From a virus: DNA of 64,000 bases. The translations under genes and the position numbers were made by a program. Where the stretch lies: the IMG/VR virus record IMGVR_UViG_3300025435_000016, positions 1 to 64,000 of that record. The stretch is one strand, 5' to 3'. A model generated the notes under the pieces. That model ran no database searches. It was not told the origin of the DNA and saw only the letters and a list, made by a program, of their open reading frames with translations. Positions 36,104 to 37,676 of the stretch are shown one piece after another; positions within the stretch are counted from its first letter, which is position 1, and the number at the start of each line of letters is the position of its first letter.

Positions 36104-36138
36104 CAGATGATTATATATCTTTTATACATTATAGCAAG

Positions 36139-36173
36139 AAAAACCCCTACTACCTGATCAGGGCAATAGGGGT
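36139..36173 (-). terminator. intrinsic terminator closing the RNA operon
   Basis: ACCCCTATTGCC...GGTAGTAGGGGT then TTTTCTT. Confidence 0.8.
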
Positions 36174-36486
36174 GAGTTCGAACTCTGTTTTCCATTTCTT
36201 TATCTCTCTGCATTTTAGGGATAGCGACTCCTTTCCGGACTTGAGACCGGCAACTGGTAGCATTACTAAAGAGGTGATTGAAAGGATTTTATTCCGGATT
36301 TTGTTCCTTCCTTAACGGAGATCAGGCATGGAGCCTCTACTTCCGTCCAGCTTGTGTTTAATCAATACGTTAGGATCAAAGCTTACCGTAGGTGTTTGGC
36401 TCCCCTAACTTGAATAAGGACTACTAACATACCAACAAGCAACTCATCCTTACCCCTCTCTAGGATAATTCCTACAACTAGAGAGT
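36174..36486 (-). ncRNA. unidentified ~310-nt structured RNA
   Basis: no sense ORF, raised GC, multiple helices, potential GGAGCC/GGCTCC loop-loop pair. Confidence 0.6.
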
Positions 36487-36496
36487 ATTAATTTTA

Positions 36497-36605
36497 TGAC
36501 CGGGGTGGTTAATCCATCCTTGTGCAGCGGTTGATAAACGCGTTTTAGAGCAACCTAGTCACCCGCACGTACGGTAGCTCTTTCGATCGAGCCTGCGAAC
36601 GGTCA
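36497..36605 (-). ncRNA. unidentified 109-nt four-way-junction RNA
   Basis: closing TGACCG/CGGTCA plus three hairpins. Confidence 0.6.
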
Positions 36606-36618
36606 AATTATTAAAATG

Positions 36619-36633
36619 TACTATCAAAGATCA
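36619..36633 (-). promoter_or_regulatory. boxA-like element
   Basis: TGATCTTTGATAGTA, identical to 37645-37659. Confidence 0.65.
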
Positions 36634-36647
36634 ATTCTTATTCTCTT

Positions 36648-36676
36648 AATATAGTGCCTGAATAAGGAAGTGGCAA
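36648..36676 (-). promoter_or_regulatory. sigma70-type promoter for ncRNAs
   Basis: TTGCCA-17(cttcctt...)-TATATT. Confidence 0.6.
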
Positions 36677-36684
36677 CTAAAAAA

Positions 36685-36758
36685 TGGAGCCTAGTGACAG
36701 AATCGAACTGTCAAGACGGATTTACAAAAACCGCATTATACCATTTAATTAACCAGGC
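36685..36758 (-). tRNA. tRNA-Thr(TGT)
   Basis: TT-TGT-AA loop, TTCGATT, CCA; one mismatch in anticodon stem. Confidence 0.85.
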
Positions 36759-36763
36759 AAATT

Positions 36764-36836
36764 TGGCAGAGGAAGGAGTTGAACCTTCTATTTCAACGTT
36801 ATGAGCGTTGCGAGATGACCGTTTCTCTACTCTGCG
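36764..36836 (-). tRNA. tRNA-Met(CAT), initiator-like
   Basis: C1xC72 mismatch, A11-U24, CT-CAT-AA; no CCA. Confidence 0.8.
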
Positions 36837-36844
36837 TTAAAAAA

Positions 36845-36968
36845 TTGTAAGTTCCTTTGTCCTAAAAACTTGAAGCGTCCTTCATTATGTATTAGTTTTG
36901 TACGAACTTACGACGAACCGGTTCCATGCATACAACCTTTCGAACAGCTGTAGAGAGGGTTTTGCCGA
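36845..36968 (-). ncRNA. unidentified ~125-nt two-domain structured RNA
   Basis: TACAGC/GTTGTA, GTAAGTTC/GAACTTAC, AAAACT/AGTTTT, TGAAG/CTTCA stems. Confidence 0.5.
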
Positions 36969-36996
36969 TTACTGTAAAGTGGTGGAGGCGAGGGGA

Positions 36997-37202
36997 CACT
37001 TAATCTCTAGCTTTCGCTAAAGCGTGGACTATATCTTCACCCGTAAGGGTGTTGGATGCTCTAGCCGGTACTCCGGTAGTCTCTGCACCTTCCTATTTCT
37101 AGGCTCGGCTCAGTATTGCCATATTGCTTTCGCAATTTAGGTTTCACTGAATTCTTCCAATTTATTCATTATCTATTACTAGATAAGTCGACCTGCATGT
37201 TG
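36997..37202 (-). mobile_element. group I intron (206 nt, no ORF) in tmRNA T-loop
   Basis: P/Q/R/S cores AATTCAGTGAA, AATACTGAGC, GCAGAGACTA, AAGATATAGTCC; exon ends U, intron ends G; removal restores AGGGG-TTCGATT-CCCCT. Confidence 0.9.
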
Positions 37203-37432
37203 ATCGAACCCCTGTGTTTATACTGTTAGGCTTGTACATCTACACGCTTAGCTAGCTTTCGTACTTTGGTTGACTAAAGGTAACCAGGCACCAGCGACCT
37301 ATCCATGTTTAGAGTCCTACCTATGCAGATGGAAGAGCTCTGCATAACCCCTTGCACTTATTTTAAAGGTATCACAAGTTCTACCTTACCTATTATTTTT
37401 CCAAAAGCGTAATAGGATCTGCTTTTGGTTCC

Positions 37433-37540
37433 TTAGGCTGCGATAGCGAGAGGAGCCATTTCGTCACAGAGACAGAACTCTGTGATTGTATTGACTGCCT
37501 TCTTTACCTTGGCGAGGATTGCGTTGACGTTAGTCTTTGC
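37433..37540 (-). other. tmRNA tag reading frame
   Basis: ATAAAC|GCA resume context; AKTNVNAILAKVKKAVNTITEFCLCDEMAPLAIAA*. Confidence 0.8.
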
Positions 37541-37638
37541 GTTTATGTTTTGATTAGCTTTTTAAAGTGGCCAACTAATCAACCACTACGTGCAATACAA
37601 GTTTCGAGTATAAGTCGAATCCAGTACGCCCCCAAAAT

Positions 37639-37676
37639 TATTTATACTATCAAAGATCATTTGTCCTAATGGACAT
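37639..37676 (-). promoter_or_regulatory. tmRNA leader: hairpin, boxA-like element and late promoter
   Basis: TGTCC-ATTA-GGACA, TGATCTTTGATAG, TATAAATA. Confidence 0.6.

Follow-up and report, generated by a model that had tools for sequence, protein, structure and literature searches.

A modular RNA with a covarying core and a predicted twister ribozyme in the tmRNA/tRNA island of a freshwater phage

The tRNA cluster of bacteriophage T4 encodes two small stable RNAs, species 1 and 2 (rnaC and rnaD), that are co-transcribed and processed with the tRNAs; we know of no ribozyme associated with either. Twister ribozymes are widespread, and to our knowledge their biological jobs are largely unknown. 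The RNAs GOLLD, ROOL and OLE are phage-encoded in tRNA islands and have multi-pseudoknot folds, and the variable 5′ part of GOLLD possibly contains tRNAs (PMC12286853). For these RNAs, covarying palindromes in symmetric kissing loops have been taken as evidence for homo-oligomers; the argument was used for L9.3 of OLE and L21a of GOLLD, and agreed with cryo-EM structures (PMC12286853). Here, we describe a phage locus that shares its setting and a loop palindrome of this kind with GOLLD, ROOL and OLE, and from which oligomerisation might likewise be expected. Unlike those RNAs, its core is much smaller (~225 nt), modular and ribozyme-flanked, and matches no model. Its likeness to T4 species 1 and 2 is one of description.

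The window, the whole stretch of DNA analysed, is 64 kb of the 76-kb IMG/VR virus record IMGVR_UViG_3300025435_000016. CheckV puts the completeness of this record at 35%; hence, the phage genome is probably ~200 kb. A first-pass annotation had read positions 36174-36486 of the minus strand as a single ornate RNA of ~310 nt. The stretch lies within a gene-free gap of ~580 nt that runs from tRNA-Thr up to an open reading frame at 36103-35684, and tRNA-Thr, tRNA-Met and tmRNA are immediately upstream, a phage tRNA neighbourhood like that of GOLLD and ROOL. The features of the region are as follows.

37201-37625, minus strand: tmRNA, interrupted by an intron (Rfam/ARAGORN; Rfam 53 bits)
37005-37237, minus strand: group I intron within the tmRNA (Rfam 84.6 bits)
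36764-36836, minus strand: tRNA-Met (Rfam/ARAGORN)
36685-36758, minus strand: tRNA-Thr (Rfam/ARAGORN)
36648-36676, minus strand: sigma-70-type promoter-like site directly after tRNA-Thr (TTGCCA, 17 nt, TATATT; 10/12 in a consensus scan)
36621-36634, minus strand: leader with the boxA-like word UUGAUCUUUGAUAG, nearly invariant among relatives
36497-36605, minus strand: module A, a stem-closed multi-helix RNA of 109 nt (RNAalifold)
about 36493-36265, minus strand: core RNA, ~225 nt (alignment and pair counts; 5′ end approximate)
36197-36272, minus strand: type-P1 twister
36174-36185, minus strand: small hairpin GAGUUCGAACUC, 3′ of the ribozyme and 5′ of the terminator (read from the sequence)
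36134-36173, minus strand: strong intrinsic terminator with a 12-bp stem (36173-36143) and a U run (terminator scan)

The promoter-like element is kept in the aligned loci of relatives, and the terminator is conserved with covarying stem positions. Relatives with the same terminator also keep the small hairpin; loci L008, L032, L037 and L060 have another 3′ module. A second copy of the boxA-like word, with one mismatch, is found at 37647-37660 (minus strand), ahead of the tmRNA. The boxA-like leader may have a role in antitermination. Where Rfam was run, the RNA of the relatives lies mostly within the same tmRNA/tRNA island; L009 has no tRNA or tmRNA match. The flagged stretch is best explained as the 3′ two-thirds of a transcription unit for stable RNA, ~500 nt long, within the tmRNA/tRNA island of a large and uncultured phage from fresh water.

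We made several further observations on the island. The group I intron interrupts the tmRNA in its T-arm (36978-37625, minus strand), and the 3′ exon, which ends in CCUCCACCA, lies near 36980-36996 (minus strand). The pairing of tmRNA and group I intron recurs in L015 and L023; the tmRNA of L012 is uninterrupted (113.9 bits). The boxA-like word UGAUCUUUGAUAG comes after both promoter-like sites of the island. The interval of ~125 nt between the tmRNA 3′ exon and tRNA-Met (36845-36968, minus strand) is gene-free and highly conserved, also in L015, L025, L044, L050, L052, L055 and L056, and is probably another small structured RNA.

With the 591-nt stretch as query, BLAST gave no match in 50,697 phage records. 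The route through the downstream protein led to four sister loci (L002-L005), all without the RNA island and without a BLAST or Rfam match. An exact 17-mer from the twister-like part retrieved 23 viral loci, eight of which are clear homologues of the whole 550-nt unit; in four others (L009 and L018, identical in sequence, L016 and L026) the twister stands in another context. Further viral and metagenome loci were obtained with patterns on invariant core words; L029, L031 and L034 proved to be chance matches of a two-motif pattern. With two patterns designed without the GGAGCC and GGCUCC motifs, the sole additions were L094 and L095, both viral contigs. Prokaryote genomes gave no match to a strict pattern; all 33 matches to a loose pattern were due to chance, and their number is close to the chance expectation by our own estimate. 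The homologues are a narrow set of lake phages, mostly retrieved with patterns that fix some motifs; their relatedness inflates the shuffle statistics given below, and controls made by sliding alignment columns retain that relatedness. In freshwater RNA libraries, contigs of relatives cover 36285-36471 and 36494-36592, together with parts of the tmRNA and intron; these are Logan contigs, covering small shares, from which ends, strand and expression cannot be read and whose gaps prove nothing.

We aligned 20 distinct homologues of the core with MAFFT (alignment A1) and tested five hairpins, two crossing helices and a loop palindrome. The elements tested, other than the palindrome, are listed here with the helices named in the first-pass annotation.

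36485-36456, minus strand: hairpin H1, with the helix CTCTCTAG (36485-36478) / CTAGAGAG (36463-36456)
36453-36414, minus strand: hairpin H2, with the helix TAAGGA (within 36453-36447) / TCCTTA (within 36420-36414)
36409-36369, minus strand: hairpin H3, with the helix GTTAGG (36409-36404) / CCTAAC (36374-36369)
36347-36314, minus strand: hairpin H4, with the helix ACGGA (within 36347-36342) / TCCGT (within 36319-36314)
36311-36280, minus strand: hairpin H5, with the helix GAAGGA (within 36311-36305) / TCCTTTC (36286-36280)
36435-36440, minus strand: 5′ strand GCUUGU of pseudoknot PK1, in the H2 loop; partner ACAAGC at 36355-36350, in the H3/H4 linker
36471-36476, minus strand: H1-loop word UGUAGG, candidate for loop-loop pairing with the H3-loop word CCUACG at 36392-36387

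In A1, 91.8% of cells are paired, compared with 34-50% in controls in which the 3′ partners were shifted by 1-3 columns. Both sides have changed in 23 of 53 pairs, four of them in H1 and three or four in each of H2, H3, H4 and H5, and none of 500 shuffles reached the observed values; some apparent mismatches are MAFFT shifts in one subgroup. Every helix that had been listed is present on the minus strand where it was placed, with support from compensatory changes in the 20 relatives, and the claim that structured non-coding RNA lies beside the tRNA genes holds by covariation. A long-range pairing of GCTTGT (36440-36435, minus strand) with ACAAGC (36355-36350) had also been suggested. PK1 is paired in 98.3% of cells, and three of its pairs have two-sided changes, switching between UA and CG in 7-9 of the 20 sequences. 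On this comparative evidence, we regard GCUUGU/ACAAGC as proven to be a real pseudoknot. The pairing of UGUAGG with CCUACG is intact in 100% of cells. It includes four variable positions, at which only A or G stands opposite U, or C or U opposite G; these are pairing-preserving transitions, with no two-sided change. The contact between the H1 and H3 loops is probably a second lock of the core, with moderate support. The words GGGGAGCCAAA and GGCUCCAUGCC are invariant in the core.

Comparison with shuffled controls, which the first-pass annotation had offered as a way to argue against its RNA, went against it: the minimum free energy of the 313 nt is −77.8 kcal/mol and the shuffle mean −78.0 (z = 0.04), and neither the plus strand nor a longer stretch folded better than shuffles. 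Because the RNA is pseudoknotted, the z-score of the minimum free energy is a poor test, and we therefore took covariation as decisive. The homologues share no open frame on either strand and differ by many indels that are not multiples of three; hence, a coding reading is excluded. An Rfam search of the 591-nt stretch returned only twister at E ≤ 10, and not GOLLD, ROOL, RNase P, OLE, raiA or HEARO. GOLLD and ROOL also had no match on a 2.2-kb stretch at E ≤ 10 or in the whole window at E ≤ 1, and none of the RNase P models (bacterial, archaeal and minimal) matched at E ≤ 10; A-rich motifs that look like RNase P by eye have no model support. The earlier decision not to assign the RNA to GOLLD, ROOL or RNase P was therefore sound, and the covariance-model check that had been proposed was negative for those three families and yielded twister as the only family. 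We conclude that the core is a real folded RNA of an uncatalogued class of the phage tRNA-island kind.

The twister lies at the 3′ side of the core. It has the layout P1-L1-P2-L2-P4-L4 of type-P1 twisters, with an N-A cleavage site beside P1, a three-pair T1 (L4-L1), a two-pair T2 (L4-L2) and optional P3 and P5 (RF03160; PMC5408937). A P5 hairpin is present, and the other parts are placed as follows.

36272-36267 with 36202-36197, minus strand: P1
36247-36238, minus strand: L4, flanked by the two strands of P4 (CCGG/CCGG)
36208-36204, minus strand: 3′ strand of L1

The match to RF03160 (36200-36269) runs from end to end over model positions 1-68 and scores 32.4 bits, below the Rfam gathering score of 67.2. 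Its E-value is 3.8e-5 on the stretch; taken over the whole window with all 4227 families, it is 0.0041. There are four departures from strongly conserved positions, all of them in two compensated pseudoknot pairs, with the T1 and T2 partners taken as defined by crystal structures (PMC5408937). In T1, CCC of L4 is CUC and its L1 partner GGG is GAG; in T2, GC of L2 is AC and its L4 partner GC is GU. Thus, unlike the twister consensus, T1 is CUC:GAG rather than CCC:GGG and T2 is AC:GU rather than GC:GC. This variant, together with the P5 insert, accounts for the 32-bit score. The UAA, the remainder of L4, the AAA linker and the cleavage-site adenine all match the consensus, and the scissile bond is predicted to lie between U36265 and A36264. 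Searches of four related phage records gave at most one twister match each.

We collected 19 twisters of this variant by descriptor parse (alignment A2), three of them from unrelated contexts. In A2, 94.4% of cells are paired and ten pairs have changed on both sides, values that none of 500 shuffles reached. Stems P1, P2 and P4 are 86-100% paired and are kept by compensatory changes; P4, for example, occurs as CCG/CGG, UCG/CGA, CAU/GUG, ACC/GGU and UAG/CUA. Both CUC:GAG and AC:GU are paired in 100% of the 19 twisters, among which the optional stems P3 and P5 come and go. These data bear on whether the element could be an inactive relic or a structural look-alike, with the 3′ end of the RNA formed by the terminator and exonucleases. 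The score does not reach half of the Rfam gathering score, each pseudoknot has two off-consensus positions, and in high-throughput assays twisters tolerate many imperfections but not unpaired pseudoknots, where they are least tolerant (PMC11662667). However, the changes here are compensated Watson-Crick pairs, not imperfections, and leave both pseudoknots fully paired. The cleavage-site adenine and all other strongly conserved positions are kept, and the compensation of P1, P2 and P4 across lineages, with P3 and P5 varying as in genuine twisters, indicates selection on the fold. We therefore regard an inactive element as unlikely. By sequence and predicted structure, the element at 36197-36272 is a divergent, sub-threshold member of the twister class, and the compensated pseudoknot variant shows that real-looking members fall below the Rfam threshold for twister.

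The CUC:GAG and AC:GU variant is shared by two twisters in unrelated viral contigs, at L016 10675-10737 and L026 1258-1320. These twisters have minimal junctions, without P3 or P5; thus, the variant is not confined to the RNA island.

Identification of the twister changes how the flagged 313 nt are divided: they hold the core, the twister and a small hairpin, and not one ~310-nt RNA. The CCGG/CCGG helix exists, and is P4 of the ribozyme rather than part of a larger fold. The GAGT-TCGA-ACTC hairpin (GAGTTCGAACTC; 36185-36174, minus strand) likewise exists, and instead of being terminal it sits between the ribozyme and the terminator. Across relatives, the unit has the order promoter, leader, variable module, optional ~115-nt module, core, twister, hairpin or other 3′ module, and terminator. 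RNAalifold on 12 sequences of module A gave 33 pairs, 12 of them changed on both sides. The place of module A is taken by a different module, B, in L015, L023, L030 and L044, and by a tRNA in L025 and L050. Module A is co-transcribed with the core and is a separate, replaceable fold. The earlier suggestion that this 109-nt domain is continuous with the RNA downstream is thus right for the promoter and transcript, which are shared, and wrong for the fold. The optional ~115-nt module occurs in L008, L011/L020, L023, L032, L048 and L060, in shorter form in L045, and is absent from the window. These exchanges of modules with each other and with tRNAs suggest that phage tRNA islands are general sites of stable-RNA expression.

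The optional ~115-nt module is closed by a stem (GAUUACUG...CAGUAAUC) and stands before the core, after module A or B. It has the conserved words CGCGGGUA and GGCCAG, and no Rfam match.

The twister does not always follow the core directly. In L009 (1993-8293), which belongs to the same contig as L018 and L039 (218 kb, rated complete), module A and the core are followed by ~14 small same-strand open reading frames, and the only twister of the genome lies 6 kb downstream of the core, just before a terminator. In L045, the core is separated from a twister that has P3 and P5 by a tRNA-like gene (at ~140-230) into which a long internal insert is built. These arrangements weaken a strict coupling of core and twister; the ribozyme may instead act for the end of the transcription unit, as a mark of that end, and not specifically for the core.

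The first-pass annotation had also proposed a six-base-pair kissing loop between GGAGCC (36403-36398, minus strand) and GGCTCC (36335-36330). H4 folds into the same hairpin in every homologue: inside an outer stem lies the inner stem xGGC/GCCx, which closes the 5-nt loop UCCAU. The pairs beside GGC/GCC covary (A-U, U-G, G-C, plus an extra C-G or U-A). The GGC is used in this local stem, and half of GGCUCC is therefore already occupied. Both words are invariant in A1; as most homologues had been retrieved with these words, their invariance is in part circular. The one informative case from the motif-independent searches is L094, in which GGAGCC is UUAGCC and GGCUCC is unchanged, so that two of six pairs disappear with no compensating change; the short GGA:UCC version of the loop pairing would be lost as well. 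The aligned sequences leave this kissing loop unsupported.

The same observations bear on the wider reading from which the kissing loop came, a single ornate RNA of 310-480 nt, compact and GOLLD/ROOL-like, with the 109-nt domain included and GGAGCC/GGCUCC as a tertiary contact. Such an RNA would suit a phage tRNA island, where GOLLD and ROOL are found (PMC12286853), GOLLD likewise has a variable 5′ part able to hold tRNAs, and the two words are complementary and almost invariant. However, even a search confined to the 591-nt stretch gave no match to GOLLD or ROOL at E ≤ 10. A complete twister, closed by a stem of its own, makes up the 3′ part, and the upstream domains are each stem-closed and are swapped among relatives. 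Together with the covarying local stem that contains GGC and the uncompensated change in L094, this makes a single ornate RNA quite unlikely.

Absent from the first-pass annotation is a covarying palindrome in the loop of the last hairpin, which comparison of the relatives suggests is a better kissing-loop candidate, and an intermolecular one.

36287-36304, minus strand: 18-nt loop of H5, proposed to be the kissing site of a homodimer, with the palindrome UCCGGA (36298-36293) at its centre

The H5 stem covaries, from GGAAGGA/UCCUUUC in the window to UUGAG/CUCAA in one subgroup, and the loop is A-rich. Across relatives, five palindromes occupy one loop centre.

UCCGGA: the window and most relatives
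UUCCGGAA: L015
AUACUAGUAU: L008, L011, L025, L055 and L056
UCGGCCGA: L045
UUCUAGAA: L060 and L094

A centred 6-nt palindrome has a chance of ~0.014 per sequence (~1.4% of random loops of this composition). Self-complementarity is kept and adjacent nucleotides cannot pair within one chain, which argues for pairing between two copies; the loop sequences thus point to a homodimer. The covarying palindrome would fit a symmetric contact of the kind seen in the GOLLD and ROOL homo-oligomers. The dimerisation initiation site of HIV-1 is a self-complementary, purine-flanked hexamer in a hairpin loop, whose sequence varies by lineage while its palindromy is kept. The H5 loop resembles it in having a variable yet palindromic hexamer, an analogy of mechanism only; it differs in the length of its loop (18 nt vs 9), and the molecules and their biology are unrelated.

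In principle, the palindromes could have a cause other than dimerisation of the RNA. All versions are classic 6-10-bp DNA palindromes, as expected of a DNA site for a dimeric protein or for restriction and modification. However, the sequence differs between close relatives and only self-complementarity is kept, a pattern that fits base pairing and not protein recognition. UCCGGA is neither repeated nor enriched elsewhere in the window, and the palindrome always marks the exact middle of an A-rich loop of 18 nt that is closed by a covarying stem. A DNA site is, on these grounds, very unlikely, and pairing between RNA copies is the reading that we retain. We also rejected two other roles for the palindrome: as a repeated operator, because it is not enriched in the window, and as one half of a switch that pairs the H5 loop with P4 of the twister, where both contain UCCGGA and there is no covariation between them.

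We consider it probable that the locus encodes a modular transcript in which a folded core pairs with itself and a twister trims the tail. A single precursor would be made from its own promoter after tRNA-Thr and extend through the boxA-like leader as a chain of independently folded modules. The twister would then fold and cut between U36265 and A36264, which would separate core and terminator; U36265 is thus predicted as the 3′ end of the core, set by ribozyme cleavage. All twisters leave a 2′,3′-cyclic phosphate, and such an end would define and protect the 3′ end of the core. The upstream module would be split off by host tRNA-type processing or by endonucleases. Two released cores could then pair through the self-complementary hexamer of the 18-nt H5 loop to form a symmetric dimer. 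Circularisation by a phage RtcB was considered and rejected, since no RtcB was found in the record that contains the window or in four relatives, of which two have a completeness of 90% or more. Unlike a typical twister, the one in the window closes a stable-RNA unit on its 3′ side, just ahead of a terminator, a placement that suggests a job in 3′-end formation; its fixed position between a conserved structured RNA and the terminator makes that role directly testable. As to the role of the core, we can offer a guess by analogy: it might be a stable RNA scaffold or decoy in the sphere of translation and tRNAs during infection, a role that is also suspected for other ornate RNAs of phages.

More tentatively, the core, and perhaps neighbouring modules, might be protomers of an RNA-only assembly that is made in the tRNA island and released by the twister cut, although we would not put this at even odds. 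If true, it would be a new class of self-associating RNA and include the first twister with a defined role in maturation of a stable non-coding RNA. With a palindrome signature like those of OLE and GOLLD, the core is a small, tractable candidate for natural RNA-RNA assembly.

Palindromes also occur outside the core. The hairpin of module A (36497-36605, minus strand) has a 4-nt loop, CGCG in the window and GGCC in most relatives, both of which are self-complementary; with the A/U stem, the loop forms a 10-nt palindrome, AAACGCGUUU or AAAGGCCUUU. This hairpin may be a second self-pairing site. In module B, which we found in L015, L023, L030, L044, L095 and L094, a hairpin carries the loop GGCC; L094 has AGUGCACA in its place, with the palindrome GUGCAC. 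Here too, the word is changed and self-complementarity is kept. The alternative 3′ module that follows the twister in L008, L037 and L060 ends in a terminator hairpin with the stem AUAGGAGCC...GGCUCCUAU, and these two stem words are the two hexamers that are invariant in the core.
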